From a virus, in the IMG/VR virus record IMGVR_UViG_3300025064_000001: a DNA stretch of 59,957 bases; one strand, written 5' to 3'. Shown here one piece after another: positions 128 through 59,146 of the stretch (the stretch's first letter is position 1; every line of letters begins with the position of its first letter). A program made the translations under genes and the position numbers. The notes under the pieces were generated by a model, which worked only from the letters and a program-made list of their open reading frames with translations, was not told where the DNA came from and searched no databases.

Positions 128-620
128 ACAATATCTGCCAGTCGGTGAAGCCTACATCATAGGGCACAATATTGATTACGATATTCAAGTCGCGGCCAAC
201 GCTGGCGTCGATGTTAGTCAGTACAAACGTATTTGCACCCAAGCGCTGGCACGTAGAATGCTGCCGGACTTGGATAGCCATTCACTAGGCGCACTCACCT
301 ATGCTATCAACCCTGATTTAGCACGCCAGTATTGCCGCAATGCTCATGATGCTGGTTACGATGTGACGTTCACGCTATGGCTGCTGGAGGAGATATGCGA
401 GATTGGGTTCTTCACCAGCATGGAGCAGCTGTATCTTGCCAGCGAGGAAGCGCGGATTCCGCTTACTTTTACGTTTGGTAAGCACCAAGGCAAGGCTATC
501 AAAGATATAGCGGTCACTGATCGCAGTTACTTACAGTGGATTATAAAAAATCACGACAACGCTTATCTAGTTAAGGCGTGTCTCGATGCTATAACCGGCA
601 ATATTAATATTAACGTGTAG
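3..620 (+). CDS. DnaQ/ExoX-like DEDDh 3'-5' exonuclease, 3' portion. The gene starts at 59692 and wraps through the junction (252 aa in total).
   Basis: Exo II GHNIDYD and Exo III HDAGYDV lie here, and Exo I IIDFEAT lies in the 59692.. part. The C-terminus has an FGKHQGK...YLQWI module. The frame is continuous across the 127-bp overlap. Confidence 0.85.
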   Translation, partial: NYYASHSVICKPDRAISYGAMAVSHIMPSDVEHALSHKLVVPQYLPVGEAYIIGHNIDYDIQVAANAGVDVSQYKRICTQALARRMLPDLDSHSLGALTYAINPDLARQYCRNAHDAGYDVTFTLWLLEEICEIGFFTSMEQLYLASEEARIPLTFTFGKHQGKAIKDIAVTDRSYLQWIIKNHDNAYLVKACLDAITGNININV

Positions 621-629
621 GAGTTTGAC

Positions 630-773
630 ATGGGTGATGCTAATTGTCCTGAGTGTGGCGGCGGCTATACCTGCCAAGATCAGGTTGCGGATCAAGAAGT
701 GGTAACAGCTACTTGCCGCAACTGCCAAACTGAGTTTGATGTTGAAGCAAGTGTTTCTTTTAATATGGCTTGA
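630..773 (+). CDS. Small (47 aa) four-cysteine zinc-ribbon protein, below the ORF-track size cut-off
   Basis: ATG at 630 is preceded by TAGGAG 7 nt upstream. Translation is MGDANCPECGG...CRNCQTEF. The stop overlaps the next start (TGATG). Confidence 0.6.
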   Translation: MGDANCPECGGGYTCQDQVADQEVVTATCRNCQTEFDVEASVSFNMA

Positions 774-1060
774 TGGAGATTGAAATGGCTAAGAAGCTAT
801 GGAAGAACGTCACTGAAGACGAAAAAATGAAAATGAAGCAGTTTGTTATTAATAATCCACCAAACACGCCGCTGACGCCTGAGTATGCAGCAAGCTACTT
901 GGGCGTATCGACAGCCACGTTGCAAAAAATGCGCTGCGAAGATACCAATGGCATAGCATTTTTTAAGCCCAGTCATAGGTGTGTCGTTTACTACAAGCGT
1001 GATCTTGACGAGTATCTGACATACGAGCCAGCCTATCACAGCACCGCGCAATATGCGTAG
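773..1060 (+). CDS. xis: Excisionase-like HTH DNA-binding protein (start is 773 or 785)
   Basis: The segment LTPEYAASYLGVSTATLQKMR...YYKRDLDEYL resembles Xis/AlpA-type HTH proteins. The gene sits immediately upstream of attP and int. Confidence 0.6.
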   Translation: MEIEMAKKLWKNVTEDEKMKMKQFVINNPPNTPLTPEYAASYLGVSTATLQKMRCEDTNGIAFFKPSHRCVVYYKRDLDEYLTYEPAYHSTAQYA

Positions 1061-1205
1061 TGGCGGCTTGCGAATTTTTCTTAGAATGCCGTTACCGTTT
1101 TCCTGCCTTGGCCCACGACCAATTCTGGCCGTCGGCCATATTTTCAGCAAGCAATAGTGCTCATGAGAACTTCTTAGGCACTCTATAATTATCGTTACAC
1201 AATAA

Positions 1206-1224
1206 CTATGTATTGCCATTTATT
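1206..1224 (+). repeat. Direct repeat copy 1 (CTATGTATTGCCATTTATT), candidate integrase arm-type site
   Basis: 16 of 19 nt match 1288..1306. The copies are 82 bp apart, just upstream of the tRNA-derived core. Confidence 0.45.
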
Positions 1225-1287
1225 GCCAAGACTGTTTTAAGTGATTGATATAACGGTGTTTTTATTGCTATCTATTGTTGTATATAG

Positions 1288-1306
1288 CCATGTATTACCA
1301 TCTATT
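1288..1306 (+). repeat. Direct repeat copy 2 (CCATGTATTACCATCTATT), candidate integrase arm-type site
   Basis: See 1206..1224. Confidence 0.45.
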
Positions 1307-1320
1307 TTGACCGAGTATAA

Positions 1321-1367
1321 GACTCATAATCCTTTGGTCGTAGGTTCAAGTCCTACTGGGCCCACCA
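1321..1367 (+). other. attP core: the 3' ~47 nt of a tRNA gene with a CAU anticodon (anticodon loop to CCA). The 5' half is absent.
   Basis: The parts read as GA|CTCATAA|TCCTT|TGGTC|GTAGG-TTCAAGT-CCTAC|TGGGCCC|A|CCA, which fit anticodon loop, variable loop, T-arm, acceptor and CCA. No complementary 5' acceptor (GGGCCCA) is found upstream. From memory it resembles the minor Ile (ileX-type) tRNA. Confidence 0.8.
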
Positions 1368-1375
1368 TATTTAAA

Positions 1376-1406
1376 CCCCGTAAGCTCAATGTTTACGGGG
1401 TTTTTT
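1376..1406 (+). terminator. Rho-independent terminator directly after the tRNA 3' fragment
   Basis: Stem CCCCGTAA / TTACGGGG followed by TTTTTT. Confidence 0.8.
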
Positions 1407-1536
1407 GTTGTCTGCTGTTTTTGGCTGGCTAGTTAGAGAGTGCGATAAACCTCTGTATGAGGACTTTGTGGGCACTTCTTATAATCTCGCTTATCGGCTA
1501 TGATACCTAAGTAAATCTACGGAATAGGCAATCAAT

Positions 1537-2793
1537 ATGGCAAGGGTTAAACTAACCAAGCGCTTCATAGACGCGCTTGAATATTCAGATAAAGCGGATA
1601 TTATCCAAGACGAGTTGGTCAACGGTTTTGCTGTGCGTACCAATAAGACTAATAAGAGCTATATGATTAGCAAGCGGATTGGCGGCAAGATGATCCGTAA
1701 GTCTATCGGTGATTGCTCAGTCATGACGTTGCAGGATGCACGCGAGCAAGCCATGTCTATCATTAGTGAATTGATGCAAGGCCGCGATCCATTCAATGAT
1801 GATATGAAAGACGTGATAGTTCCTACACTTGGTGAAGCTTATGAATATTATATTACTCATAAGCCGGGACTGAAGCAGTCGACTATCAACACCTATAATC
1901 GGCAGATACCGGGCAAGCTGGCTGAATGGCAAGATAGGTCAATGAATGAGATAATGCAAAGCAATGTCACCGAAAAGCATTTAGAGCTTACTAAGTTGAG
2001 CCCGTCACAAGCCAATGCCACTTTTAGGGCCCTTAATGCCGTGTGGAATTTTGCTAGGCTAAGCTTTTTAGATAATTCCGAATCTCCTATTATTAAGCTA
2101 AGTCCGGTTGAGATACTGACAGCCAAAAAATTATGGAACACGGTTAAGCCTCGCACTACTTATCTCAATGAAGATACGATGGGCAATTATGTTCGGGTAC
2201 TCACTGATTTTAAGAGTGAGGATTTTCATAACATGCAGCCTCATAGTAATAATGCACGCGATATCATGCTGCTATTTCTGTGCACCGGCATACGTGCCAG
2301 CGAAGGTTACACATTAAGATGGGATTTTATTGATTTAAAACACGGTACTATGACTATTCACGAAACTAAGAACGGCGATACTTTGCATGTGCCGCTCGGT
2401 AAAGTCATGTGCGCAATGATGGACCATCGTCATCACTACCGACAAAATGAGCCTTGGGTATTCCCATCACGCTTAATAGAATATGACGGCAACCTGACTG
2501 ATATATCAAAACAGTATAAGAACATCGGTGACGCGGCTGGCATTCATATCACGCCGCATGATCTGCGCCGGACATTCTCAACCGTGGGTGATATTCTTAA
2601 TTTAAATATATCGGTTATCAAGCGCTTGATGAATCATCGGACATCGAAAGCGTCTGACGATGTGACATTGCAGTACATTCAGGTCAGTCAAAAAAGATTG
2701 CGTGCTGCAATGAATGATATTGAAGAGTTTATTTTTAATGAGGCTGGCATGACACAGGATGAGGTTATCGAGAAGTTGTACAAGATTTACTAG
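1537..2793 (+). CDS. int: Tyrosine integrase, P4-like (N-terminal arm-binding domain plus C-terminal catalytic domain)
   Basis: N-terminus MARVKLTKRFIDAL...NGFAVR. Catalytic residues are in context: GIRASE (Arg), HDLRRTF (His-x-x-Arg), NHRTS...LQY (His, Tyr). It is adjacent to the tRNA-derived att core. Confidence 0.95.
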   Translation: MARVKLTKRFIDALEYSDKADIIQDELVNGFAVRTNKTNKSYMISKRIGGKMIRKSIGDCSVMTLQDAREQAMSIISELMQGRDPFNDDMKDVIVPTLGEAYEYYITHKPGLKQSTINTYNRQIPGKLAEWQDRSMNEIMQSNVTEKHLELTKLSPSQANATFRALNAVWNFARLSFLDNSESPIIKLSPVEILTAKKLWNTVKPRTTYLNEDTMGNYVRVLTDFKSEDFHNMQPHSNNARDIMLLFLCTGIRASEGYTLRWDFIDLKHGTMTIHETKNGDTLHVPLGKVMCAMMDHRHHYRQNEPWVFPSRLIEYDGNLTDISKQYKNIGDAAGIHITPHDLRRTFSTVGDILNLNISVIKRLMNHRTSKASDDVTLQYIQVSQKRLRAAMNDIEEFIFNEAGMTQDEVIEKLYKIY

Positions 2794-2809
2794 CTAACAA
2801 ATATTGTTA

Positions 2810-2818
2810 TGTTATAAT
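2810..2818 (+). promoter_or_regulatory. Extended -10 promoter TGTTATAAT, 17 nt after the int stop codon
   Basis: TG-n-TATAAT read directly. No convincing -35 element. Confidence 0.5.
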
Positions 2819-2824
2819 ATTACC

Positions 2825-3049
2825 ATTCCTTGTAGTTGATTGACGCAGTAATCCCTAGTCGCTAGGGCTGGGTTTCCAGATAGAGCGAACGTAGTCAGAC
2901 CAGCGGTGCTACGACATGCAAAAACACTGGCAGATGATGTGCGTTTCCTTACCTCCGTATCACCGCGCATGAGTCATCCGATTGATACCCGTAAAGTTGT
3001 GCTAAGGTATTTGGGCAGAAAGCCGCTAATTACAGTTAGCGGCTTTTTT
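2825..3049 (+). ncRNA. Candidate ~225-nt non-coding RNA (or structured int 3'UTR) bounded by a promoter and a terminator
   Basis: No ORF longer than 18 codons and no RBS. Several hairpins are present (CCCTAG-tcg-CTAGGG at 2853-2867). A C/U-rich anti-SD-like segment CCTTACCTCCGTA lies at 2947-2959. It ends at the 3021-3049 terminator. Confidence 0.45.
3021..3049 (+). terminator. Rho-independent terminator (9-bp stem AGCCGCTAA/TTAGCGGCT plus T-run)
   Basis: Read directly. The T-run is present only on the + strand. Confidence 0.8.
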
Positions 3050-3148
3050 ACGTCTGCTATCCTTATGGCTCCCGGCTGATATATAAGGGTTGCAGCGTTT
3101 TCGCTCTCTCATTCTTTCTCTCAAAACTCGCTCACTTCTCTCAAATTT

Positions 3149-3186
3149 TTGCGTTCATTTGCGTTCATGAACGCAAATGAACGCAA
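3149..3186. repeat. Perfect 38-bp palindrome built from four TTGCGTTCA units (two direct, two inverted)
   Basis: TTGCGTTCATTTGCGTTCA|TGAACGCAAATGAACGCAA. The reverse complement of the left 19 nt equals the right 19 nt. Confidence 0.95.
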
Positions 3187-3219
3187 TAAAAAACCCCATC
3201 TAAATTAATAGGTGGGGTT
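3185..3219 (-). terminator. Rho-independent terminator closing the minus-strand late/lysis operon
   Basis: On the - strand: AACCCCACC...GATGGGGTT followed by TTTTTTATT. It lies about 100 nt after the endolysin stop. Confidence 0.7.
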
Positions 3220-3316
3220 AGTTGGTTTTTTCTGCGCTACTTTACTCGAGTTTTCACACAGTCTCGGCGACCAAGCCAACAAGGTAATTATAGCAGCTAA
3301 ACCTAGCCAGGTGTAG

Positions 3317-4189
3317 CTACAAATACCGCAAGCACTTCTCAAGCGCTTGGCAAAACTCAGTGTAACCATTCAAGCCACCGTTGACCGTCTCGCGAATAAT
3401 GCGAGCGCCGTAATTCATCTTATAGTCTTTGGTTTCAACACCTTTGGTATTCAGTGTGTTCAGCGTATAACCATTTGAGTAGGTGTTAATCTTTTCAGCT
3501 TTCTCATTGCAGCCATTAATACGCCAAAATTCCATAGCAGCGATGGCGGCATTCTCCATGTCTTCAATCAGCTTGGGATTGTCACCAAACTTGATGCTAG
3601 TCATGTTCTGCAAAATAAAATAGTTATCTCGGAAGGTATTGCCAGTCCAGCCGCCACCTCTATAATCCCAACCGTCATTGGTGTTAGGGCGATTGCCATA
3701 GCGACCGCCGTACAAGTAATTAGCCACAGCGACTTGCCCCTTTGCAAGCAATGCCCTGGCATCCGCTACAGACTTGATACGCGTAGGGAACACGGCTCGC
3801 AAGCGCTCAGGGCGATAATTAAAGCTCTCACGCTTGGCATTAAAGGCGCTTGACTCATGAATGCAGTTAGCAATAAAGGCACACATCTGCTTCTTGGTGA
3901 CAATGCCGTACTGTGGACCTAGTCTTAATAGCAGCTCTACCGCCGCTGGATTGACGCTTGAGTCTACTTTTTTAAGTGTCTCAATCGTTAGGTTATAAGG
4001 TCGCTTGCCAGCCGCGACTTCCACTTCTTTAACTGACAACTCTAATCGCTCGATAAGTTCGCCGCGAAACTTGTTATCAGTCATGGCCTGATTGGTGATA
4101 TCGACAATAAGTTGTGACATTTTGGTTGGCGCTAAATGCTCGCGCAGTTTTGCAAAAATAGCGGTATCGGTAACGGCTTGACTGGTCAT
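3317..4189 (-). CDS. Endolysin, glycoside hydrolase family 19 (chitinase-like) type
   Basis: Motifs FIANCIHESSAFNAKRE and YRGGGWTGNTFRDNY resemble the GH19 catalytic region. It is the last gene of the late block, after two membrane proteins. Confidence 0.75.
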   Translation of the reverse strand: MTSQAVTDTAIFAKLREHLAPTKMSQLIVDITNQAMTDNKFRGELIERLELSVKEVEVAAGKRPYNLTIETLKKVDSSVNPAAVELLLRLGPQYGIVTKKQMCAFIANCIHESSAFNAKRESFNYRPERLRAVFPTRIKSVADARALLAKGQVAVANYLYGGRYGNRPNTNDGWDYRGGGWTGNTFRDNYFILQNMTSIKFGDNPKLIEDMENAAIAAMEFWRINGCNEKAEKINTYSNGYTLNTLNTKGVETKDYKMNYGARIIRETVNGGLNGYTEFCQALEKCLRYL

Positions 4190-4521
4190 AATGATTTACC
4201 TTTAATACGGGTTTTTTTAATCTTAACTTCTGGCGCATTTGGCTCTAGCGTTTCCACCTGCTTTTTTAGCAGTGGCATACAGCACCACAAGCCAATTAGT
4301 ACCAGCGCTCGACTGACCACGGTTAAACTGGTTGGCACCAAGTCCTGAACAGTGTCGGCCAAGAATAGTAAAACCCACACGACGCCAAGCGAGATAACAC
4401 CTATTTGGATGCGAGCGTTACAACCTGTCTTGTACTTACCAAACCACCACACCCAGCTCCAGCCGATAATGCCAATGAATGCGAGCAAGGTATTAAAAAA
4501 CTCTAAGTTAAAGATGATCAT
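4186..4521 (-). CDS. Small membrane protein (about 3 TM), lysis-cassette component
   Basis: Hydrophobic segments in the translation. Overlaps both flanking genes by 4 nt. Confidence 0.65.
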   Translation of the reverse strand: MIIFNLEFFNTLLAFIGIIGWSWVWWFGKYKTGCNARIQIGVISLGVVWVLLFLADTVQDLVPTSLTVVSRALVLIGLWCCMPLLKKQVETLEPNAPEVKIKKTRIKGKSL

Positions 4522-5084
4522 TTATCATTCCTCCCGATAAACGCCATCAAGATACCTTTGAAGTAACCAAAGACAGCCTTTATCATGTCAGGCGCAGAGC
4601 TATGAGCCTCTGTGTTAATAAGCGCCCATAATTTTTCGCCAGTAAAGAAGGCAATCACGTAATAGATAACCACCGAGCCAATAGCAGCAAAAAAACCTGC
4701 CGGTACAATAAGACTCCAGATAGTGATATCAGGGTAGAAGGCCGGCACGATAAACAAAGTCACCAATATGCCAAACGACAAGCTATAAAACGGCTTGAGA
4801 TAAGCACGTTTAAACTTACCGTCAATCGGCGTTTCTTGGTTCATGCCAGCAATGGTGCCAAAGATAAGCGCTATCACAAAGAACACTACGCCAAGCCAGT
4901 TGGGAACTGTGAAGCCGACTAATAGGTATGGGTCAGCCATTTGAAATAAGTACACGTTATTCTTTGGCACGACCTCAACAACCGACGGCGTGGTGATATC
5001 TGAGGCAGATAATGCGGCGGCTTTGGTGGCAATATAACCGCCCATTGCGATAATGCCATTGCCGAAGGCTGCTCTAATGGTCAT
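4518..5084 (-). CDS. Multi-pass membrane protein, holin candidate
   Basis: At least 4 hydrophobic helices. Located upstream of the endolysin. Confidence 0.55.
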   Translation of the reverse strand: MTIRAAFGNGIIAMGGYIATKAAALSASDITTPSVVEVVPKNNVYLFQMADPYLLVGFTVPNWLGVVFFVIALIFGTIAGMNQETPIDGKFKRAYLKPFYSLSFGILVTLFIVPAFYPDITIWSLIVPAGFFAAIGSVVIYYVIAFFTGEKLWALINTEAHSSAPDMIKAVFGYFKGILMAFIGRNDK

Positions 5085-5132
5085 TGATATGTCCTTTACT
5101 GCGTTTTATTTAAGCGAGGCACCAGTCGGTTG

Positions 5133-6068
5133 CTATAGCGTTAGCAATCTACGGATATCACTAGGTTTATGACCGTCCCATTCAGGTGCTCTATCTACCT
5201 CATTGACATCAAACATATTCCAATCATCTAAATGGTAGTGGTATGTGTAGTAACCATTAGGTGTTTTAACACCAACAATAAAGTAATCATCAAACATAGT
5301 ACCGTCTGCGTGTAGCTTAGACTTGAAAGCTACTTCTTTATTGTTGTTACAGATAATTGAAAATAAGACCATGCGATGATAGTAAAGCTCGTCAAACGTA
5401 TGGTAGCCGTCCGAAGTTTCTCCGGTTATAACAATATCTTTTGCGCAATCGCACAATGAGCCAGTTTCGTTTAGACGCTTAATTTCATCTTCGGTTAATT
5501 CGTGGTCGGGGTCTTGGGGTGCGGTGCATTTATTGACTTCGGCAGTTACTTTTTCTGAAAAGGCTAATGCTGTCTTCTTTACAGCGTCAGACTCCAACTT
5601 CTTACTAAGTGCGATTTTGATGCGTATTTCTAATATGTTGAAATACTCAGACATATAGTCGCGCTGATCTAGTAGTAACTCCCATTCTTTATCGTCAATA
5701 AAACTAGGTTGCGGTTTAGATAAGAAGTCGCACAGCTTATCTAGTTTTTCACGCAAGTCTGATTGCTCAAAAATCATTCGGGAAGCGTAGCTTGTCGGCT
5801 GTTTGACGCGATAGATATCATTGGCCAATAAATAACCTTCAAGTGGCCATAGCTGAGTGATTACTTTTTTAAGCGCGATTTCTTCGCCTAGCTCTTTATT
5901 GTAATTGGCAGGATCAACACAAGCTGATTCGCCAGTGACTTGAAAACCGCAAGGCAAAGTAACCATGCAATGAGTCAACGTGCCAGCAAGGTTGGTATAA
6001 GTAATAGTGCTTCGAGCCACTAAATGCTCAAGGTCTTCTTTGGTGACTTTATTAGGGAGGTCTGCCAT
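5133..6068 (-). CDS. Two-domain protein: N-terminal Gp49/Sf6-gp66-like domain plus an uncharacterised C-terminal domain (DGYHTFDELYYHR...EWDGH)
   Basis: The N-terminus TYTNLAGTLTHCMVTLPCGFQVTGESACVDPANYN resembles the N4 gp49-type family from memory. It is the first gene after late-motif copy 1. Confidence 0.6.
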   Translation of the reverse strand: MADLPNKVTKEDLEHLVARSTITYTNLAGTLTHCMVTLPCGFQVTGESACVDPANYNKELGEEIALKKVITQLWPLEGYLLANDIYRVKQPTSYASRMIFEQSDLREKLDKLCDFLSKPQPSFIDDKEWELLLDQRDYMSEYFNILEIRIKIALSKKLESDAVKKTALAFSEKVTAEVNKCTAPQDPDHELTEDEIKRLNETGSLCDCAKDIVITGETSDGYHTFDELYYHRMVLFSIICNNNKEVAFKSKLHADGTMFDDYFIVGVKTPNGYYTYHYHLDDWNMFDVNEVDRAPEWDGHKPSDIRRLLTL

Positions 6069-6145
6069 GGGTCATCCTTTTTCTGATTAATAGATATCTA
6101 TACCGTTTCAATAGTCACCATTTAATCAAGATAGGCGCACACTTA

Positions 6146-6161
6146 CGAACCTTATAGGGGT
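6146..6161 (-). promoter_or_regulatory. Late-unit element copy 1: ACCCCTATAAGGTTCG (minus-strand sense)
   Basis: 16 of 16 nt identical to the copies at 18165, 37577 and 44091. It lies 78 nt upstream of the 6068 start and 16 nt after a terminator. Confidence 0.6.
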
Positions 6162-6176
6162 GCGCCAAAAAGCAAA

Positions 6177-6206
6177 CACAAAAAAGCCCACCGCTTAGGG
6201 TGAGCT
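6177..6206 (-). terminator. Rho-independent terminator after the giant gene
   Basis: Minus strand: AGCTCACCC-taagc-GGTGGGCT followed by TTTTTTGTG. Confidence 0.8.
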
Positions 6207-6241
6207 TTGAGTTATCGAGGAATCTTCGGTAACTGAATTAC

Positions 6242-44780: not shown

Positions 44781-44938
44781 TATTTCCAAAAATCAAGTGC
44801 CAACATAATCAAAACAGCAATAGCAGCTTTTATAGTCACTGCAATCACATCAGCCCAAGGAATAGGCCAAAAATGAATAACAAAAGCTACAAGCAGGCAC
44901 ACGGTCACAACCCACTCTATTCGATAGTTATTACTCAC
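44765..44938 (-). CDS. 57-aa membrane protein with a GTG start (not in the ORF track)
   Basis: GTGA start/stop overlap with the upstream gene, GGAG upstream, two hydrophobic helices. The 44765..45007 + ORF in the track is its antisense shadow. Confidence 0.45.
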
Positions 44939-46486: not shown

Positions 46487-46500
46487 TTTTATGCACCTGG

Positions 46501-46908: not shown

Positions 46909-46922
46909 ACCCTCCTGCCCTT

Positions 46923-51144: not shown

Positions 51145-51178
51145 GGATATATACTCCGATTACAGGTTAAGTTTGTTA

Positions 51179-51212
51179 AACGCTCTCAGTTCGTGCTGAC
51201 GAGCGTTTTTTA
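51179..51212 (+). terminator. Plus-strand-oriented rho-independent terminator between two minus-strand genes
   Basis: AACGCTCTCAG-ttcgtg-CTGA(c)GAGCGTT followed by TTTTTT. Only TTTAAC follows on the - strand. Confidence 0.6.
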
Positions 51213-52121: not shown

Positions 52122-52330
52122 CACTGCCCCCACATTCTGTATAACGTTGTCAGCACAATTAATACGGCTGCTACGTGGACCAATATATAAACGACTTTCC
52201 AAAACGCCTTGTCGTCTGCTTCTTTGTCACTTTCTTCTTGCGAGCAATCACTGACCGCTTCACTTGCCAGCGCTGCTAAGCGTTCGCGCTCTTGTTCGCA
52301 AGAAAATAGACTTCTATCCGTTGATTTCAC
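52121..52330 (-). CDS. 69-aa protein with a C-terminal TM helix
   Basis: ORF. Contains FWKVVYILVHVAAVLIVLTTLY. Confidence 0.55.
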   Translation of the reverse strand: MKSTDRSLFSCEQERERLAALASEAVSDCSQEESDKEADDKAFWKVVYILVHVAAVLIVLTTLYRMWGQ

Positions 52331-52361
52331 CTTTGTCTCCTTTTCGGTGCCTTAAAAACAC

Positions 52362-52547
52362 CTATTTGATAATCTGGATTGGTTCAGGATTTTGAATGCG
52401 CTTGCGAATATCGTCTTTGGACTTCTTGACGAACTGGTTGGCGGCGTGGGCCGTAAACTCTTCTACGGTCATTCCCTTTTGTGCTGCCGCCCATCGCAAC
52501 TGCTTCATTTCTTCATCGTTTTTAAATTCCGTTTCTATATCAGGCAT
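52362..52547 (-). CDS. 61-aa small early protein (possible ribbon-helix-helix)
   Basis: ORF in operon context. Confidence 0.5.
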   Translation of the reverse strand: MPDIETEFKNDEEMKQLRWAAAQKGMTVEEFTAHAANQFVKKSKDDIRKRIQNPEPIQIIK

Positions 52548-52577
52548 AGACCTCCCCTTGTGGTAACCGAAAAACGC

Positions 52578-52778
52578 CTAAACTGCGTCTTCATAATCGG
52601 TTAGGTTTCGTTCAAACTCAGCTTTAATCTCAGCGACAAGCTTCATCGTTGCTTTACGGACTAGCGTGCTTTTTTGTAGACCAGTCAGACCAGTGACGCG
52701 GATTAAATCCTCGTACTCGTCGTCACTGAAACGCGCATTGATACGGTTGTCTTTGATGTGTTTCGGGTCGTCGTACAT
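52578..52778 (-). CDS. 66-aa ribbon-helix-helix-like protein
   Basis: RINARFSDDEYEDLIRVTGLTGLQKSTLVRKA pattern. Confidence 0.55.
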   Translation of the reverse strand: MYDDPKHIKDNRINARFSDDEYEDLIRVTGLTGLQKSTLVRKATMKLVAEIKAEFERNLTDYEDAV

Positions 52779-52781
52779 GAG

Positions 52782-53006
52782 TTACGCCTCCTCTTGTATG
52801 TATGTTTCAACGTGCTGAACATCATCGATGCTTTTAGGCATGAATATTTCTGGGTGGTCGATTTTTGCGTCTTTCGAGATGCCACGTTTAACCCAGTTAT
52901 GAACTGTGTTGTTTTTATAACCAAGCGCGTCAGAGATAGCCTTTACACCGCCCAATCTCTCAATGACTTGCTTATCGAACTCTTTTTTAGATTTCATGTT
53001 TTTCAC
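52782..53006 (-). CDS. Cro-like HTH repressor (GTG start)
   Basis: GGVKAISDALGYKNNTVHNWVKRG. Divergent from the CI-like gene. GGAG lies 6 nt before the GTG. Confidence 0.7.
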   Translation of the reverse strand: MKNMKSKKEFDKQVIERLGGVKAISDALGYKNNTVHNWVKRGISKDAKIDHPEIFMPKSIDDVQHVETYIQEEA

Positions 53007-53021
53007 ATCTAACTCCTATAG

Positions 53022-53112
53022 TCACATGACATGATAAATATTATCACATAGTGTGAAATAAAAGGCAATAAACAATTTTTTCTTGTGAAACAAAGTTACT
53101 CACACGTTGTGT
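53022..53112. promoter_or_regulatory. Immunity-region operators: TCAC-N5-GTGA at 53044-53056 (perfect), 53100-53112 and 53022-34 (one mismatch each)
   Basis: Read directly. The perfect site overlaps the -10 of the rightward promoter. Confidence 0.6.
53040..53068 (-). promoter_or_regulatory. PR-like promoter for the cro operon (TTGCCT-17 nt-GATAAT)
   Basis: Hexamers at 53063-53068 and 53040-53045 on the - strand. Confidence 0.5.
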
Positions 53113-53148
53113 AAAATACTTATAACAGGATTGATAACGAGGTGACTC

Positions 53149-53856
53149 ATGCACGAGAGTATGAAAAGACTTCAAGAAGTCGCAAAAACAGATAAAAACT
53201 CTGATATTTCTCGCGACTTGAATGTCGGTGCCTCTACCGTAGCAAACTGGGTTAAAAGAGGTGTGTCCAAAGAAGGTGCTTTAGCGGCAGCCGCTAAATA
53301 CGATAGCGATGCTAATTACATATTAGACGGCGTTCAAGAAACTAAGCCCTCCATCGCTAGTCTTAGAAGTAAAATACACGCTATCCAAAATGGTAGCGAC
53401 GACAGTCAACCAGCGCCATTAGGCACTAAAAACATACCAATGGCTGAAAACTCAGATAAGGTGCCTATTCTTAGCTGGGTCGCGGCTGGTAGCTGGTCTA
53501 ACGTTGAGGCAGTGACTTTTGATGATGCTATAGGGAAGGTGTCGAGACCAAATAACTTATCAAAAAACGGCTTTGCCTTAATTGTACGCGGCGAAAGCAT
53601 GTTACCTAAGTTTGATCCTGACGATATTATCTATGTAGAGCCTGAGACTGGATTGTTTGCATTAAAGAATAATGACCTTGTGGTCGTCCAGTGCAATGGA
53701 GACACAGAGGCGACATTTAAGCAGTTGGTTATTGGCGAAACCTCGGATGATATGTATTTAAGACCACTTAACCCTAATTGGCATGAACAGAAGATGATGC
53801 CAATGGGTGACTGTAATTTGGTTGGCAAAGTGGTGGGTAAGTATGTTGAATTCTAA
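53149..53856 (+). CDS. CI-like repressor: N-terminal HTH plus C-terminal S24/LexA-type autopeptidase
   Basis: VGASTVANWVKRG (HTH). FALIVRGESMLPKF (Ser) and LVGKVVG (Lys) are spaced as in LexA/CI. GAGGTG RBS. Confidence 0.85.
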   Translation: MHESMKRLQEVAKTDKNSDISRDLNVGASTVANWVKRGVSKEGALAAAAKYDSDANYILDGVQETKPSIASLRSKIHAIQNGSDDSQPAPLGTKNIPMAENSDKVPILSWVAAGSWSNVEAVTFDDAIGKVSRPNNLSKNGFALIVRGESMLPKFDPDDIIYVEPETGLFALKNNDLVVVQCNGDTEATFKQLVIGETSDDMYLRPLNPNWHEQKMMPMGDCNLVGKVVGKYVEF

Positions 53857-53976
53857 CGAGTGGGCTTATATATGGGTTTGTCACTTGATACAGCACTCAA
53901 AGCTAGTGACAGAGTTACCGCATGGTTGGTGCGTCTATAGAGAGGCGTTAGATTGGGATTAATGTAAATAATAGAT

Positions 53977-54004
53977 AAAACCGTCATTTATGGCGGTTTT
54001 TTTT
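53977..54004 (+). terminator. Rho-independent terminator after the repressor gene
   Basis: AAAACCGTCA-ttta-TGGCGGTTTT followed by a T-run. Confidence 0.75.
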
Positions 54005-54015
54005 CGTCTGTATTT

Positions 54016-54088
54016 TCACACCAAGAGATAATATAATCACGTTATGTGATATTTGTTATTGACTTATTTTCACATGGCGTGATAGTAT
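54016..54088 (+). promoter_or_regulatory. PL-like early promoter (TTGACT-18 nt-TAGTAT, 54059-54088) with operators TCAC-N5-GTGA at 54037-54049 and 54070-54082, and a weaker site at 54016-54028
   Basis: Read directly. The operator at 54070 lies within the promoter spacer. Confidence 0.6.
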
Positions 54089-54174
54089 TATCACATCAAA
54101 ACGGCAATCGCCCTGCGAGCAATCGCTAAAACTATTTAATAACGGTCTATGACCACTACTACGGAGATAAAGGC

Positions 54175-54429
54175 ATGGCATGTAAATGTATTGATGAATT
54201 ACCTGCAAAGATTATGGCTCATTGCAATCAGCAGAAAGAGTATCAAGCCAAACCAGTAATAGATGCCTCTTTTAAAGACATTGTGTTCCCGATAATAAAC
54301 GGCGAGATGTTCGATGCGCTAAAAGCGGATGTGTTACTCATCGTAGATGGGCGACGAACGCCAAAGAAAACAACTATGACGTTCGTTTACTGCCCTTTTT
54401 GCGGCGTGAAGTATCAGGAGAATGTATGA
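54175..54429 (+). CDS. 84-aa Cys-containing early protein
   Basis: ORF preceded by ACTACTACGGAGA with GGAG 8 nt before the ATG. Confidence 0.7.
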   Translation: MACKCIDELPAKIMAHCNQQKEYQAKPVIDASFKDIVFPIINGEMFDALKADVLLIVDGRRTPKKTTMTFVYCPFCGVKYQENV

Positions 54430-54653
54430 GCGAAGAAACCATCATCAAAAAACTGTCAGACGGTGCAACCGTAAAGATTAGTCATTACCAAGAAAAGAAA
54501 GTGAGCTTGAACTTAGTTACTGGTAATTCACGCACAAGTCGAATTGACCATTACGAGTTTATAACTGAATCAAACGGCAAGCAAAAGAAAACGAAGATAC
54601 CTAAGCGTCTATATGTTGCGCTACGTGCATTTGAGATAGACCCGAAATTTTAA
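54426..54653 (+). CDS. 75-aa hypothetical early protein (ATGA overlap start)
   Basis: ATG at 54426 overlaps the upstream TGA. Confidence 0.6.
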   Translation: MSEETIIKKLSDGATVKISHYQEKKVSLNLVTGNSRTSRIDHYEFITESNGKQKKTKIPKRLYVALRAFEIDPKF

Positions 54654-54733
54654 AACCAGTTATTACAACATAGCCGATTGCTCGCAGTCGTCTATCTCGT
54701 AACAACTCACTCAATCACATAAGGAATAACTTA

Positions 54734-54907
54734 ATGAGCAATCAATCAGAACAGTTAAGCCGACGCGACCAGTTAGCGGCGGCAGCCATGCAAGGTCTTA
54801 TTAAGGCGCACGCTGGCAAGCAAGTGAGTAGCGTTCAGATAGCGCTGTCAGCAGTGCAACACGCTGATTCATTAATTGCCGCGCTTAGCCTCAAAAAACA
54901 GGCATAA
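54734..54907 (+). CDS. 57-aa hypothetical protein (below the ORF-track cut-off)
   Basis: AAGGA lies 8 nt before the ATG. Translation is MSNQSEQLSRRDQLAAAAMQGLIKAH... Confidence 0.5.
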   Translation: MSNQSEQLSRRDQLAAAAMQGLIKAHAGKQVSSVQIALSAVQHADSLIAALSLKKQA

Positions 54908-54964
54908 AAAAAGCCCCAATCAGATGCAACTGACTAGGACTTCAAACTACTACGGAGACCCATT

Positions 54965-55246
54965 ATGGAACAATTATTAAAGTTAGTCAACGTCGAGCTG
55001 ACTGCAAAGCTCGCAATATCCGCCCTACTCGCCAGCGCCGTCATTGCTACGGGTGCGAGTGCCCTAGCAACTGGTATCGAAGCGCAAGACCAGGTGCATT
55101 TAGAGCACAAGCTTTATCTGGAAGATAACACCAATCCGGACGCTGACGATGATATGAGTTGGGAAGAATATCAAGCCAGCCAGCAGGCCAAGGAAGCGGC
55201 GCACGCCAATGATTTTATCGCTAAGGCGTATGGGAGAAAGTCATGA
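54965..55246 (+). CDS. 93-aa protein with one TM helix
   Basis: ORF preceded by ACTACTACGGAGA. Confidence 0.65.
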   Translation: MEQLLKLVNVELTAKLAISALLASAVIATGASALATGIEAQDQVHLEHKLYLEDNTNPDADDDMSWEEYQASQQAKEAAHANDFIAKAYGRKS

Positions 55247-55701
55247 GCTTAGTTGATTTAACTGAATTGGCGAACAACTTGAACACGCAAGACAACCTCG
55301 CCACCCAGCACCCTTTTTACTGCATCTACTCTAAGCGTTCTATTTACATAGAAGATGGTTATGGCGGCATCGAGACAAAAGATGTGTGGGTTGCCGCTGA
55401 TGACTACTGCGAAGTAGAAGATGAGCTTTCAGAGGCGCTATCTGTAATCTCAGAAGGGTATAGCTCGGTGGAGGTTACTGTTGATGACTGTAAGACACAG
55501 TATCACCGAAAGACTGTAGGAGTGATTCCTCAGTTTGAAACCGCTTGCCTCACTCGCGCTGGTGCAGATGCTTATCTTGCTGCTAATAGTCACAATTTAA
55601 ACCAGCCATACATTCACGTCCACTCTCTTAATCGTAATGACGAAATGATTGGCTTGCGTGAACACGTCATCAATAACTTCTCAGGAGAAAGTCATGAGTA
55701 G
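55243..55701 (+). CDS. 152-aa hypothetical early protein
   Basis: ORF with a 4-nt overlap. Confidence 0.7.
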   Translation: MSLVDLTELANNLNTQDNLATQHPFYCIYSKRSIYIEDGYGGIETKDVWVAADDYCEVEDELSEALSVISEGYSSVEVTVDDCKTQYHRKTVGVIPQFETACLTRAGADAYLAANSHNLNQPYIHVHSLNRNDEMIGLREHVINNFSGESHE

Positions 55702-56041
55702 CAGAATCAGCTATAAAACGATGACCGACGCCGAGCTTATCGATGAAGGTCTTGATTGCGACCCTGATAGCTTAGCTTATGAGTTGGCTGTCACGTTGGA
55801 TGTACTGCCAATCAATCATGGTTCAGTACAAATTGATGATGATGGTTCTTGTGATGGTTGTGACGAGTTGCAAAACGAAATCCATCATCTTGAGTATGAA
55901 GTTTCTCGCTTAGAGAGTGACTTGGAGGAGCTGGATATCGACACTCTCATTGCTGGCGCAAAGAAAGCGAAAGAAGCAGTTAAGAAAGCACATGACAAGC
56001 TTAACTACTTGTTTGGGCTGGGAGGCGACGATCATGAGTGA
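55694..56041 (+). CDS. 115-aa acidic coiled-coil protein
   Basis: ATG at 55694 with a GGAGAAAG RBS. Confidence 0.6.
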   Translation: MSSRISYKTMTDAELIDEGLDCDPDSLAYELAVTLDVLPINHGSVQIDDDGSCDGCDELQNEIHHLEYEVSRLESDLEELDIDTLIAGAKKAKEAVKKAHDKLNYLFGLGGDDHE

Positions 56042-56207
56042 GTATCAACAAGACGCCGCTGGCTGGGAATGGATGGATCAGGAAGAACAGCACTGGTTTG
56101 CTAACAATATCAGCGAACAAGCCAGCGCTGAAGCTGAAAAACAAATGATGGGCCAACTATTAGCGCAGTTTGACAGCGTGTTTGGTCAAAGTAAGGAGAA
56201 TATCTAA
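56034..56207 (+). CDS. 57-aa acidic protein
   Basis: ATG at 56034 (ATGAGTGA overlap), GGAGG upstream. Confidence 0.55.
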   Translation: MSEYQQDAAGWEWMDQEEQHWFANNISEQASAEAEKQMMGQLLAQFDSVFGQSKENI

Positions 56208-56866
56208 TGGCTATCGTGACTTTAGTGTTAGGCAATAGCGGTTCGGGCAAGTCTTTTAGTATGCAAAACCTCGACCCATCGCTATGTGGCGTTATCAACG
56301 TCATGGGTAAGCCGCTACCCTTTCGAGCTGGCAAGCAATTTAGAAAGTTGAACACGGATAATGCTTACGAGATTAACAACCTTCTGCCATCTCTTAAAGC
56401 GCCTATCGTGATTATCGATGACTTCCAGTACATCATGGCCAATGAGTTTATGCGCGGTGTGACCGATGAAGGTGGTGGTAACTCAGTATTCCAGCGCTTT
56501 AATCGGATTGGTCAGAACGCTTGGAACATTCTGAACACGGCTATCAACAATACGCACCCTGACCAACGCATCTACATTTTATCGCACATCGAAGAAGTGG
56601 AAGGTAAGACGAAGATTAAAACGATGGGCAAGATGCTCGATGAAAAGATTGTACTTGAAGGCATGGTGACTATCGTACTGCAAACCACTATTAGAAATGG
56701 CGAGCATTACTTTATGACCAAGAATGACGGTACAACCACTGTCAAAACGCCGCATGAAATGTTTGCCAGCGAACTAATACCCAATGATTTAAACGCTGTA
56801 GATGATGCAATTTGCGACTTCTACGGTATTGCTAAAAACCCTAATCAACAGGCACAAATAGCCTAA
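56207..56866 (+). CDS. Sak4-like (AAA_24-type) recombination ATPase
   Basis: Walker A GNSGSGKS and Walker B VIIDDF. 219 aa. Directly upstream of the SSB-like gene. Confidence 0.7.
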   Translation: MAIVTLVLGNSGSGKSFSMQNLDPSLCGVINVMGKPLPFRAGKQFRKLNTDNAYEINNLLPSLKAPIVIIDDFQYIMANEFMRGVTDEGGGNSVFQRFNRIGQNAWNILNTAINNTHPDQRIYILSHIEEVEGKTKIKTMGKMLDEKIVLEGMVTIVLQTTIRNGEHYFMTKNDGTTTVKTPHEMFASELIPNDLNAVDDAICDFYGIAKNPNQQAQIA

Positions 56867-56887
56867 TTTTATTTAAAGGACCTACCC

Positions 56888-57652
56888 ATGAACTTCCCTA
56901 CTATCCAGCTAAACGAAACTGCCGCACTTAAAGCCAATACTGGTGGCGGTCAATTCTTTGATGGCAACAGCGAACAGCTGGTCAAGATTGGTCGCGCTGA
57001 GTTTGTTGTATCAAACAACACTGGCACAACCGGCATGGCTTTTGATGTATTCAACAAAGATGGTCAGAAAGGTTACTTCACTCTTTGGTTTATGAAGCAA
57101 GACGGCAGTTATATCGAAGGCTTTTACAACCAGTTGCAAAGCATTATGGCTGTCACTGGCGTTACGACACTCACCCCAACGCAAGCTAATATCGACAAGT
57201 ACGATGCTGCGGCTGGCAAGGTGGTCCCAACTCAGATGACGGTGGCCAATGAATTAATGGGCAAGCACTTCACTGGTCTGTTTATTGATGAGTTTGAAAT
57301 CTATAACGGCGAGAAGCGTAAAAAGACACAGCTATTCGCCGCCTTCAATCAGAAGCGCCAAACCTTGCAAGAACAAAAAGACCAATCAGCGGCACAGCAA
57401 ATTGAAGTACAGATGGAGCGCTTGATCGGCTACTCGTTAAAGTCAGAGAAAGAAGTTGATGCACAGATGAGCGGCAATAAAGGCGGCTATAACAATCAGC
57501 GTACAAGCCAGCCGCCACAGGGCGGTACAACTTACTCGCGCGGCACAGCACCCCAGCAAGGCTATAACAATCAACAGGGTAACAGCGCGCCAGCCAATAA
57601 TCAGGCACCAAATGGTGGTCCAGTAGTTGACGATATGGATATTCCGTTCTAG
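56888..57652 (+). CDS. Phage ssDNA-binding-like protein with a Gly/Gln/Asn-rich linker and an SSB-type acidic tail (DDMDIPF)
   Basis: C-terminal tail motif read directly. The gene is paired with the Sak4-like ATPase. Confidence 0.65.
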   Translation: MNFPTIQLNETAALKANTGGGQFFDGNSEQLVKIGRAEFVVSNNTGTTGMAFDVFNKDGQKGYFTLWFMKQDGSYIEGFYNQLQSIMAVTGVTTLTPTQANIDKYDAAAGKVVPTQMTVANELMGKHFTGLFIDEFEIYNGEKRKKTQLFAAFNQKRQTLQEQKDQSAAQQIEVQMERLIGYSLKSEKEVDAQMSGNKGGYNNQRTSQPPQGGTTYSRGTAPQQGYNNQQGNSAPANNQAPNGGPVVDDMDIPF

Positions 57653-57661
57653 GAGATAGTA

Positions 57662-58153
57662 ATGGTCTATTGTAGATACTGCGAAACTGAGAAAGCGGAG
57701 GGTGACTTTTATAAGTCATCTATCCGCAGTGATGGCAAGTCTGGTGACTGCAAAGAGTGCATACGCGCCAAGGCTAGAGCTAATAGAGCCAATAACATTG
57801 AAGCTCGCCGCGAGTTCGATAGACAGCGAGCCAACAATCCTGACCGCGTGCAAGCGCGTAAGGATTACCAGCGTACCTAACGAGGCCAACGAAAGGCAAG
57901 CGCTGCCAAACGTGCTTACGCTGAGCGCAATCCATCGATACGCCAAGCACACAATGCGGTTAATAACGCCCTACGTGACGGCAAAATTGCAAAACCGTCT
58001 TGCTGTGAGACTTGCCAGCGCGAGGCTGAATTACACGGTCATCATTGCGACTACAACAAGCCGCTAGACGTTATGTGGCTGTGTGATCCGTGTCATAAAG
58101 ACTGGCACAAAGACAACACACCTATTTACTGTGACGAGCGCAAGCTGGCGTGA
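57662..58153 (+). pseudogene. HNH (His-Me finger) endonuclease gene interrupted by a single in-frame TAA at 57878-57880
   Basis: 72 codons (CRYC...CKEC zinc finger), then TAA, then 90 more in-frame codons containing CCETC...HGHHCDYNKPLDVMWLCDPCHKDWH. The second part has no ATG/GTG/TTG/CTG start before the codon 64 Met. Confidence 0.7.
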
Positions 58154-58226
58154 CGGACAGTTTTAAATTTTTGGAATAACGACTAGCAGCCGTAAGCCGC
58201 CCTACTTCTACTTAAAGGTAAAAATC

Positions 58227-58658
58227 ATGGACTCTAAGAAAGACTTAACCCCAGTTTTAACAGGCAAGTCACTTGCTGACGCCGTAATGCTATTACAAGA
58301 TGCTTGCCACACAGCCAGTATTAACGGCGGCTGGTGGACTTGTCCTGAAACTGGCGAGTATCTAGGTGACACCGATGGTACTGGCATGAAGCGCAATACT
58401 GGTCAGTTGCTTATGTTGTGCGTAAGCGAGCTTAGCGAGGCAATGGAAGGTGATCGTAAAGGTTTGATGGACGACCATCTACCCCATCGAAAAATGATGG
58501 AAGTTGAATTAGCAGATGCAGTTATCCGCATTTGCGACTTGGCTGGCGGTAAAGGTTACGACCTAGGCGGCGCTATCGCTGAAAAACTGGCTTATAACGC
58601 TCAGCGTGCAGATCACAAGATGGAAAACCGCATCAAAGACGGTGGCAAAAAGTATTGA
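58227..58658 (+). CDS. MazG-like all-alpha nucleoside-triphosphate pyrophosphohydrolase
   Basis: SELSEAMEGDRK...EVELADAVIRICDLAG...KLAYNAQRADH pattern. Confidence 0.75.
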   Translation: MDSKKDLTPVLTGKSLADAVMLLQDACHTASINGGWWTCPETGEYLGDTDGTGMKRNTGQLLMLCVSELSEAMEGDRKGLMDDHLPHRKMMEVELADAVIRICDLAGGKGYDLGGAIAEKLAYNAQRADHKMENRIKDGGKKY

Positions 58659-58801
58659 TTGAATCAACCATCAATCGTTTAGGCAACTGGTATCAGCTAG
58701 TTGGTGAGGTGATGGCTCACCAAGGCTATGACACTGGGGTTAGTTTGAAAGGACAACTGCCAGCCTAAACACCCTATTTAACTTACTACGGAATAAATAT
58801 T

Positions 58802-59146
58802 ATGGATAAGAACATCGAAAAAAAATCTCACAGCTTGATTGATAACTTCAATGAAGTCACTGGTGATGACAGAGCGCAAGCAATGGTGATTATCTCAACA
58901 CTTACAGATGATAGTGACAGGGTATCGATACTTTCCGCGGGCACTGCATCAATGATGATGAGCATACAAGCATCTGCTTTGGCTCAAAGCTTCGATTACT
59001 TGGTTAAGGAAGGCGCAATCGAAAAGCCCATGCTTCTAATGATGGAGCTTATCACTAACCTGACTCGAGAGATGGATAGTTCCGTACAGCAAGCCCGCCA
59101 GCAAAGCCAAGATATTAACTTGCATCATGTGGCTGGCAAGCACTAG
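58802..59146 (+). CDS. 114-aa hypothetical protein
   Basis: ORF preceded by TACTACGGAATA. Confidence 0.65.
   Translation: MDKNIEKKSHSLIDNFNEVTGDDRAQAMVIISTLTDDSDRVSILSAGTASMMMSIQASALAQSFDYLVKEGAIEKPMLLMMELITNLTREMDSSVQQARQQSQDINLHHVAGKH

Follow-up and report, generated by a model that had tools for sequence, protein, structure and literature searches.

A dispersed asymmetric DNA motif, GCTGGC-D-N-G, selected in a clade of marine F116-like temperate phages

The DNA analysed here, hereafter called the window, is the complete stretch of IMG/VR virus record IMGVR_UViG_3300025064_000001 (59,957 nt), in which an earlier reading of the sequence (the original prediction) had singled out one over-represented nonamer, GCTGGCAAG. 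This nonamer is very probably the commonest spelling of a broader asymmetric motif, 5'-GCTGGC-D-N-G-3', that is selected in a clade of phages and is not used by the hosts of those phages; the description is well supported. The signal is selected, specific to a phage lineage and independent of orientation, and no known system explains it. The genes of the window are described below, followed by the motif, its conservation and its occurrence in host DNA, and by the processes that might read it.

The phage genome and its host

The first 127 positions of the window are identical to positions 59831-59957, and circularly permuted contigs of about 59.9 kb from marine metagenomes encode the same proteins. 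The window is therefore a complete circular phage genome of about 59,830 bp. The duplicated 127 nt contain no copy of the motif. The phage is temperate and F116-like. Its long minus-strand operon starts with cro-like genes, followed by genes for a Rha/Ant protein, a DnaD-like replication protein, a dNMP kinase and methylases, and continues through the small and large terminase subunits (TerS and TerL), portal, capsid and tail genes, a 3465-residue DarB-like polyvalent protein and an endolysin. In the plus-strand operon an S24/CI repressor is followed by Sak4, SSB and a DnaQ-like exonuclease, and then by an excisionase and an integrase. A MazG-like pyrophosphatase is also encoded in the window. 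The genes and regions that matter for the analysis are as follows.

1313..2793, plus strand: attachment boundary (about 1313) and tyrosine integrase (1537-2793), which link the phage to Psychrobacter
6242..16639, minus strand: DarB-like polyvalent virion protein of 3465 residues, with ddrB-ParB, LPD5, LPD1 and ART domains
40901..42523, minus strand: terminase large subunit, which groups the phage with F116-like and Bcep22-like phages
42510..43307, minus strand: stand-alone N6/N4 DNA methyltransferase (Pfam PF01555)
43343..44047, minus strand: terminase small subunit (phrog_1206), considered as a possible reader of the motif
47899..48372, minus strand: small DNA methyltransferase (phrog_954)
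52272..54811, both strands: motif-free immunity region, among the three longest gaps between copies, with cro-like genes and the S24/CI repressor (53149-53856)
56207..57652, plus strand: recombination module of a Sak4-like annealing protein and SSB, excluded as a reader

TerL of the window is 81% identical to that of Shewanella phage vB_SbaS_Y11 (Y11), 72% to that of Pseudoalteromonas phage vB_PalP_Y7 (Y7) and 68% to that of Pseudomonas phage F116. F116 is a generalised transducer, and this kinship makes it likely that the phage of the window packages its DNA by headfuls, insofar as a packaging mode can be predicted from a terminase sequence.

Psychrobacter genomes carry the integrase at 82-92% identity (88-92% over its full length). 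Homology to the Psychrobacter loci L127, L129, L131 and L132 starts at window position 1313 every time, about 220 bp upstream of the integrase, which places the predicted attachment site upstream of int and not downstream. Beyond the prophage boundary lies ordinary chromosome with housekeeping genes, including maeB and cca. Based upon the integrase identity, the shared boundary and the chromosomal flanks, the host was assigned to Psychrobacter. The endolysin region of the window is also present in the Psychrobacter prophage L129. Phages of this group are mosaic and recombining.

From a nonamer to a degenerate motif

An exact search returned 36 copies of GCTGGCAAG, 27 on the minus strand and nine on the plus strand, in full agreement with the original prediction as to their positions. 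The copies of the nonamer and of the degenerate motif are located as follows.

435..59140, both strands: 36 exact copies of GCTGGCAAG, the commonest variant (exact search, frames, codon-aware shuffles)
Minus-strand starts of GCTGGCAAG, first part: 435, 4004, 7944, 15975, 17078, 17519, 25968, 26885, 28139, 37599, 42453, 43812, 44231, 44734
Minus-strand starts of GCTGGCAAG, second part: 45139, 45453, 46726, 47154, 48145, 48821, 49102, 49851, 50868, 51427, 51883, 52263, 58011
Plus-strand starts of GCTGGCAAG: 12662, 15321, 19234, 22463, 39193, 54812, 56327, 57212, 59132
42453..52271, minus strand: early/replication region with 16 copies of GCTGGCAAG, all on the sense (minus) strand (scan statistic)
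245..59705, both strands: 135 copies of 5'-GCTGGC-D-N-G-3', 60 plus and 75 minus (logo, spacing, density)

The excess of the nonamer over chance, as first reported, was borne out by dinucleotide-preserving shuffles, in which 0.92 copies were expected and at most four were seen. Markov models of order 0, 3 and 5 gave expectations of 0.36, 3.1 and 11.6 copies. A maximal-order model expected 29.5 copies against the 36 observed, and this expectation is high because the constituent 8-mers of the word are already inflated by the motif. No conserved flank surrounds the nonamer, also as predicted.

Related words built on GCTGGC recur in the window, as had been noticed: GCTGGCGTG is found 23 times (17 plus, six minus) and GCTGGCAGG 11 times (nine plus, two minus). 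GCTGGC is the commonest hexamer of the genome, with 168 copies, and in 135 of these the ninth position is G. The seventh position is A in 81 copies, G in 52, T in 29 and C in six, and the eighth is unconstrained. The motif is thus defined by seven specified positions: the first six are strict, the seventh is not C, the eighth is free and the ninth is G. None of the single-base variants of the hexamer shows the coupling to position 9, and variants of the motif with one mismatch are barely enriched. Among patterns of the form 6+NN+1 in the window, GCTGGCNNG ranks first with a z of 17.6, the next best pattern reaching 9.2.

Independence from coding, strand and position

The original prediction held that the nonamer is independent of reading frame and acts at the level of DNA and not as an amino-acid motif, and both statements stood up to analysis. 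In the sense orientation GCTGGCAAG is read as A-G-K, L-A-S/R or W-Q, and in the antisense orientation as L-A-S or L-P-A. When proteins and per-gene codon usage were fixed, 24 sense copies were observed against 2.3 expected and seven antisense copies against 0.43, both orientations being enriched 10-16 times in these codon-aware shuffles. Fourteen of the 19 A-G-K tripeptides are spelled GCT-GGC-AAG, where codon usage predicts 1.2, and the tripeptide itself is about threefold too common (19 against 6.9). For the degenerate motif, 120 of the 135 copies lie inside open reading frames (ORFs) used as genes, in all frames (about 85-90% genic). Of these, 63 are sense and 57 antisense, where codon-aware shuffles predict 8.6 and 6.6, an excess of seven to nine times. 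The density of the motif is 2.25/kb overall and 2.22/kb in non-coding DNA.

These results decide whether the motif could be a compositional artefact arising from codon usage, from amino-acid content or as a knock-on effect of restriction-site avoidance. An artefact would accord with the maximal-order Markov model, which absorbs most of the excess of the nonamer, with the frequency of GCTGGC-type words in many gammaproteobacteria and with the purging of many palindromes from the window. Maximal-order models are saturated by the motif itself, however, and the shuffles that preserve proteins and codons leave the counts on both strands far from explained. Enrichment is equal in non-coding DNA, the coupling of the hexamer to G at position 9 is unique, and the motif is conserved beyond its flanks (see below). 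The artefact is refuted by this evidence, and we give it almost no credence. The caveat attached to the original prediction, that part of the effect might be a general oligonucleotide bias, was sound to the extent that a wider GCTGGC phenomenon contributes; the codon-aware shuffles, the position-9 coupling and the conservation rule out its compositional form.

A polarity had also been read from the observation that 29 of the 36 nonamers lie on the sense strand. The count is correct, but it does not amount to polarity: codon-order shuffles predict a sense fraction of 0.74, and 0.77 was observed. Coding produces the strand bias seen in the AAG variant, and the case cautions that in a coding-dense genome a strand bias can arise from coding alone. 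The variants differ in their lean, AAG to the sense and GTG and AGG to the antisense strand. Tallied in 4-kb steps, the copies are balanced between the strands all along the genome, and nowhere does their orientation switch. Of the phage-specific polar signal suggested earlier, the specificity to phage is favoured; the polarity is not, the full motif being symmetric between strands.

The crowding of 16 nonamers within 42.4-52.3 kb is mildly unusual for GCTGGCAAG (P = 0.003, scan statistic), 13 of them lying inside ORFs used as genes and eight being in frame as A-G-K, but it is not a property of the full motif, which has 29 sites there against 31.7 expected. The spacing of the full motif matches random placement on each strand and on both together (coefficient of variation 0.96 against 0.99), and neither even spacing nor clustering was found along the window. 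The absence of any copy from the control region of the repressor argues against a role as operator or stoperator. A likeness to the -24 element of sigma-54 promoters, (r)YTGGCAcG, was deemed a chance one, the flank composition showing no TTGC -12 element at the right distance.

Occurrence and conservation among phages

Close relatives of the window, with TerL at least 91% identical, carry 1.5-3.4 copies of the motif per kb, and G occupies position 9 in 80-100% of their hexamers. The Psychrobacter prophages L129, L131 and L128 carry 1.2-2.1 copies/kb, Y11 carries 1.86 copies/kb and Y7 1.68 copies/kb. The motif is also the top 6+NN+1 pattern of Y11 (z 11.1), and its logo is identical in L140, L196, Y11, Y7 and the window. 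Every version of the integrase gene contains one to three copies. The motif-bearing clade is well supported as one of marine F116-like temperate phages, made up of the window, its metagenomic relatives, the Psychrobacter prophages, Y11 and Y7.

Outside this clade the motif was absent or at background in 73 more distant TerL relatives (GC content 39% or 53-67%, plus L214 at 46%), and the same was true of F116, 933W and Acinetobacter phage TPWB-05. Single copies were found in the unrelated Psychrobacter phage Y8A (40 kb) and in the unrelated Pseudoalteromonas phage RIO-1 (43 kb), and none in 41 kb of a Psychrobacter plasmid. A scan of IMG/VR for two neighbouring nonamers, GCTGGCAAG N1-31 GCTGGCAAG, returned mostly tandem repeats and chance pairs, and no unrelated phage rich in the motif. 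Within the same phage family, L212 (IMGVR_UViG_2565956691_000002, GC content 38%) contains ACGGCG 25 times against 2.2 expected, L179, L168 and L174 contain the palindrome CCGGTACCG up to 14 times against 0.5, and the aforementioned L214 is rich in CCAGGC, with no GCTGGC in 13 kb.

The fraction of motif sites kept between the window and four of its relatives was compared with a neutral expectation.

L140: 82% of sites kept, neutral expectation 26%
L136: 80% of sites kept, neutral expectation 35%
Y11: 47% of sites kept, neutral expectation 13%
Y7: 36% of sites kept, neutral expectation 9%

In the comparisons with L136 and L140, the closest ones, the seven specified positions had an identity of 0.92-0.94, where the flanks reached 0.80-0.83. 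For the window against L140 the values were 0.94 at the specified positions, 0.83 in the flanks and 0.75-0.83 at the two degenerate positions, and in both comparisons the degenerate positions evolve at the rate of the flanks or faster. This pattern in the aligned sequences gives good support to purifying selection on the specified positions of the motif in phages.

A dispersed word of this kind might also propagate itself, if repair resolved heteroduplexes between recombining relatives toward the motif, following the very-short-patch logic advanced for the HIP1 element of cyanobacteria. Such a bias would agree with an enrichment that takes no account of frame, strand or gene, with random placement, with a motif that is strict at some positions and free at others and whose one-mismatch variants are barely enriched, and with the mosaic, recombining character of the phages. 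No Vsr-like nuclease or other candidate gene is common to all motif phages, DUF1064 and the methylases being missing from some. A bias in repair would moreover spread existing copies but would hardly create 135 of them, nor would it triple the number of A-G-K tripeptides. We consider this explanation unlikely.

A possible Chi-like function and the evidence from host DNA

Of the mechanisms considered, the one we favour, tentatively and with low confidence, is a Chi-like brake private to the phages, by which the motif would restrain a helicase-nuclease of the RecBCD type in the host. The low confidence attaches to this mechanism and not to the description of the motif. Headful packaging would produce circularly permuted virion DNA, so that an end might fall anywhere and face either way. 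With sites about 0.9 kb apart in each orientation, degradation would stop within a short terminal redundancy, and the stopped end would be passed to RecA or to a phage annealing protein for circularisation; fragments left by restriction would be protected likewise. Each additional copy would shorten the travel of the nuclease, and an additive benefit of this sort could have driven 135 copies into coding sequence. The motif, its symmetry, its distribution over the clade, its conservation and the lack of a selected signal in the hosts are demonstrated; we infer the reader, the headful lifestyle and the benefit, the lifestyle from the relatedness of the terminase to that of F116. The process required is one that sees the whole genome on either strand, gains a little from each copy, is irrelevant to the host chromosome, and is either tied to the phage lineage or common to three host genera.

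Several observations are consistent with such a brake. The motif is asymmetric, and its first five bases, GCTGG, are those of E. coli Chi (GCTGGTGG). Both orientations are equally dense throughout the genome, which is what permuted ends would require. The kinship of the terminase with that of F116 and the circular assembly with its 127-nt overlap point the same way. The motif-poor, unrelated phage RIO-1 has an annotated inhibitor of RecBCD. Six 6-bp palindromes (ACATGT, AGTACT, ATGCAT, CACGTG, CTGCAG and TACGTA) have no copy in the window against 15-27 expected. Palindromes of 6 bp are purged in Y11 (L133+L310) and Y7 (L309) as well, and Y11 further lacks CCWGG (0 against 83 expected) and GAATC (0 against 60). 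Avoidance as extreme as this suggests strong restriction pressure and little global modification of the DNA. The headful phage P1 is reported to be unusually rich in E. coli Chi. As a side observation, 933W (L318, first 50 kb), which encodes lambda-type exo, bet and gam, contains a single E. coli Chi in those 50 kb, in keeping with a published idea that phages with recombination and anti-RecBCD genes of their own do without Chi.

Host DNA was sampled and not taken as whole genomes (about 0.65 Mb, much of it orthologous). A 584-kb Psychrobacter pool is largely one orthologous region, and extra chromosomal DNA came by way of IS transposases and a gcvP scan of metagenomes. PLSDB was found to contain whole chromosomes labelled as plasmids, for example NZ_CP064203.1 and NZ_CP119140.1 (Acinetobacter baumannii, 3.97 Mb; Neisseria gonorrhoeae, 2.17 Mb; E. 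coli and others), which are a source of chromosomal DNA and a caveat for plasmid statistics. Four chromosomal flanks beside prophages hold nine copies of the motif in 39 kb, two further Psychrobacter loci hold six and four copies in 21 kb each, and thirty contigs of the gcvP region average about 0.16 copies/kb. The host density is thus 0.16-0.23/kb for the degenerate motif and about 0.02/kb for the nonamer, and the phage exceeds every host sample about tenfold in its density of the degenerate motif.

A number of results weigh against the Chi-like brake. To our knowledge, every well-studied Chi is over-represented on the chromosome of its host, yet GCTGGC ranks 744th among the 4096 hexamers of the 584-kb Psychrobacter pool, where the hexamer count predicts 90 copies of GCTGGCNNG and 120 are present (z 3.5, 773rd of 15600 patterns). 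Among 904 site-pairs in host orthologues, 11% were kept against 20% expected, with identity of 0.713 in the motif and 0.731 in the flanks. No consistent strand skew was seen in the host loci: at 30 co-oriented gcvP loci the strand counts are 49 plus and 32 minus, with conflicting signs between loci. Two Psychrobacter loci would fit a leading-strand preference, nine of their 10 copies lying on the presumed leading strand, provided that the records start at oriC. The presence of the motif in phages of three genera and two orders would demand a shared nuclease specificity that finds no support, and the F116-type Pseudomonas relatives have no comparable word, so the need for one is not family-wide. 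Y7 keeps the motif despite having a RecT and exonuclease of its own. Finally, a search for a reader over the shared and variable phage modules identified none. The objection from host DNA is softened, although not removed, by the consideration that codon usage alone already gives the host a copy of this degenerate motif roughly every 5 kb, which might make selection there unnecessary.

The same data bear on the classical explanation, also raised in the original prediction, that the phage has copied a Chi or DNA-uptake sequence of its host. Psychrobacter is naturally transformable. The core resembles E. coli Chi, the nonamer density of about 0.6/kb in the phage is like that of an uptake sequence, and the host chromosome has about 0.2 copies/kb of the degenerate motif against about 0.01/kb in the plasmid and unrelated phage. 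Among the 56 hexamers in 64 kb of sampled Shewanella chromosome, 11 have G at position 9, a baseline value; 11.5 kb of Pseudoalteromonas DNA contained no copy of the motif, and the MR-1 megaplasmid carries 0.28 copies/kb. The motif is unremarkable in 584 kb of Psychrobacter DNA, with no special enrichment, coupling beyond background, consistent skew or conservation in orthologues, there is no coupling in Shewanella, and the tenfold denser phage shares the motif with phages of other genera. The case against a classical host signal rests mainly on two findings: the motif is conserved in the phages and not in the host, and its phages come from three host genera. This part of the original prediction is largely refuted, and we hold a host signal to be very improbable.

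Candidate readers encoded by the phages

All motif phages have in common the packaging/structural module and the polyvalent protein, and their early modules (replication, recombination and methylases) differ. Several proteins of the window were rejected as readers on their distribution. The N6/N4 methyltransferase (42510..43307) is absent from the motif-rich L136, L137, L140 and L196 and from Y11, and the small methyltransferase (47899..48372) is present among relatives only in L136. In Y7, a search of the first 50 kb found neither the dNMP kinase nor DUF1064. The Sak4/SSB module is present in Y11, but Y7 has RecT and an exonuclease in its place and retains the motif. The two orphan methyltransferases vary in presence among close relatives, in the manner of mobile cargo, and the one at 42510-43307 sits between terS and terL.

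If the motif were the target of a phage enzyme that modifies DNA by methylation or hypermodification, more sites would mean more protection. In support of this, genes for two methyltransferases, a dNMP kinase and a MazG-like pyrophosphatase are present in the window; in Y11 and F116 the polyvalent protein bears the annotation of a methyltransferase; and the asymmetric 6+NN+1 shape is like that of sites for enzymes modifying a single strand. Domain searches of the polyvalent protein of the window detected no methylase domain. Both stand-alone methylases are missing from close motif-rich relatives, as the kinase is from the first 50 kb of Y7, the purge of palindromic restriction sites implies no broad protection by modification, and the recognition sites of modifying enzymes are not normally enriched. 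A modification target is accordingly considered improbable, more so than a bias in repair.

The distribution is fitted best by a site for a phage-encoded protein of the late module, used either for distributed recognition by the terminase during packaging or for loading of an injected, DarB-like protective protein. In the first version the terminase would start headfuls at any copy, and motif density would mark phage against host DNA by the logic of uptake sequences. In the second, the injected polyvalent protein would coat or mark the incoming DNA. The motif tracks the phage lineage across three host genera at about 10 times host density; it is independent of orientation, evenly spread and equally dense between genes, as expected for a site read in duplex DNA; and the packaging/structural module and the polyvalent protein are what the motif phages share. 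The helix-turn-helix at the N terminus of TerS is not distinctive, however, being conserved in relatives with and without the motif and showing no recognition helix specific to the clade, which counts weakly against this protein, and no pac-like cluster of copies lies near terS. The N- and C-terminal parts of the polyvalent protein are common to F116-type phages. Its middle part, including the ddrB-ParB domain, is present in Y11 and Y7 and not in F116; it is also found in scattered other phages, including 933W and TPWB-05, neither of which has the motif in abundance, and this weighs, again weakly, against a role as reader. We know of no dispersed packaging signal of this kind in any phage. A late-module protein as reader is considered doubtful, though only slightly less likely than the Chi-like brake.

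In more general terms, the clade may, and we say so tentatively, carry a host-independent, genome-wide 'self' word that a DNA-handling machine of the phage would read through motif density, candidate machines being the packaging motor, an injected protective protein or a phage nuclease. In favour of the Chi-like brake on a host nuclease, although as negative evidence only, the early operons contain no recognisable inhibitor of the Gam, Abc or gp5.9 type. The remaining probability falls to something outside the explanations set out here.

A second repeated element in the late operon

One further element was noted in the window.

6146-6161, 18165-18180, 37577-37592 and 44091-44106, sense strand minus: four exact copies of the 16-mer ACCCCTATAAGGTTCG, all in intergenic gaps of the long minus-strand operon

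Two of these copies lie 20-35 nt downstream of a terminator-like hairpin and T-run. By its placement, the 16-mer looks like a phage-specific promoter or processing element that would divide the late operon.

Comparison with known systems

Literature searches returned nothing relevant on the nonamer, on the hexamer together with phage, or on GCCAGC together with methyltransferase, and the paper on phage Y11 mentions neither the motif nor the genome termini. No description was found in the literature of a host-independent, phage-lineage-specific dispersed motif under purifying selection. Compared with established dispersed signals, the motif behaves most like uptake sequences and resembles Chi most closely in sequence. 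It fails the testable defining features of Chi, of the uptake sequences, of stoperators, of the highly iterated palindrome HIP1 and of the FtsK orienting polar sequences (KOPS).

Like Chi (GCTGGTGG), the motif is an asymmetric word of 8-9 nt that starts with GCTGG and lies in coding DNA in any frame. Each copy could add protection to linear DNA, and a permuted headful genome would need both orientations everywhere. Chi, however, is over-represented, skewed and conserved on the host chromosome. In Psychrobacter the motif is neither over-represented nor conserved and shows no consistent skew, and it is not enriched in the small samples of Shewanella and Pseudoalteromonas DNA. Its density in the phage is about 10 times that in the host, phages from three host genera carry it, and two of its positions are degenerate.

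The uptake signal sequences and DNA uptake sequences (USS/DUS) of Haemophilus and Neisseria are likewise asymmetric, 9-10 nt long, present about once per kb and equal in both orientations. They are frame-independent, distort peptides and are conserved in position, as the motif is within phage genomes only. They are explained by a machine that prefers DNA bearing the word, and the same kind of explanation is entertained here. Uptake sequences, by contrast, are a property of bacterial chromosomes read by the competence pilus, whereas the motif belongs to a phage lineage only, its hosts being without the signal and carrying it at 0.16-0.23/kb and not at about 1/kb.

HIP1 (GCGATCGC) of cyanobacteria is similarly hyper-abundant, with one copy per 0.3-1 kb, independent of frame and more conserved than its surroundings. 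HIP1, too, has no recognised reader, and its origin has been ascribed, as a proposal, to repair. It differs in being a palindrome found genome-wide in a cell, where the motif is asymmetric and confined to a phage clade. The motif also has no link to either stand-alone methyltransferase, both being missing from motif-rich relatives.

Stoperators of cluster A mycobacteriophages, bound by the L5 gp71 repressor, resemble the motif in that dozens of short asymmetric sites are spread over the genome of a temperate phage, with an apparent orientation along transcription such as was first seen for the 36 exact nonamers. Stoperators are intergenic, truly oriented and matched to the operator at the repressor promoter; the motif is mostly genic, nearly equal in sense and antisense, and missing from 52272-54811, which holds the repressor and the divergent promoter region. 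KOPS and the polar octamers known as architecture imparting sequences (AIMS) are also short, frequent and selected at the level of DNA, but they are strongly skewed and switch strand at the origin and terminus, and the motif shows neither skew nor switch.

As a compact word, the motif provides a metagenomic signature of the clade. If it restrains a host nuclease, it would constitute an anti-defence made of DNA only and could reveal which Chi-like sequences little-studied marine bacteria recognise. Should the reader be a phage protein, packaging or protection would rely on a new principle of self-recognition. Were the 'self' word real, it would be to phages what uptake sequences are to bacteria, and no dispersed signal for self-recognition would have been described in a phage before it. 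Chi, uptake sequences, KOPS and HIP1 are known from bacterial chromosomes, and phages sometimes copy such words. Here the relation is reversed: a phage lineage owns the word and has kept it in three host genera, and the hosts make no use of it.

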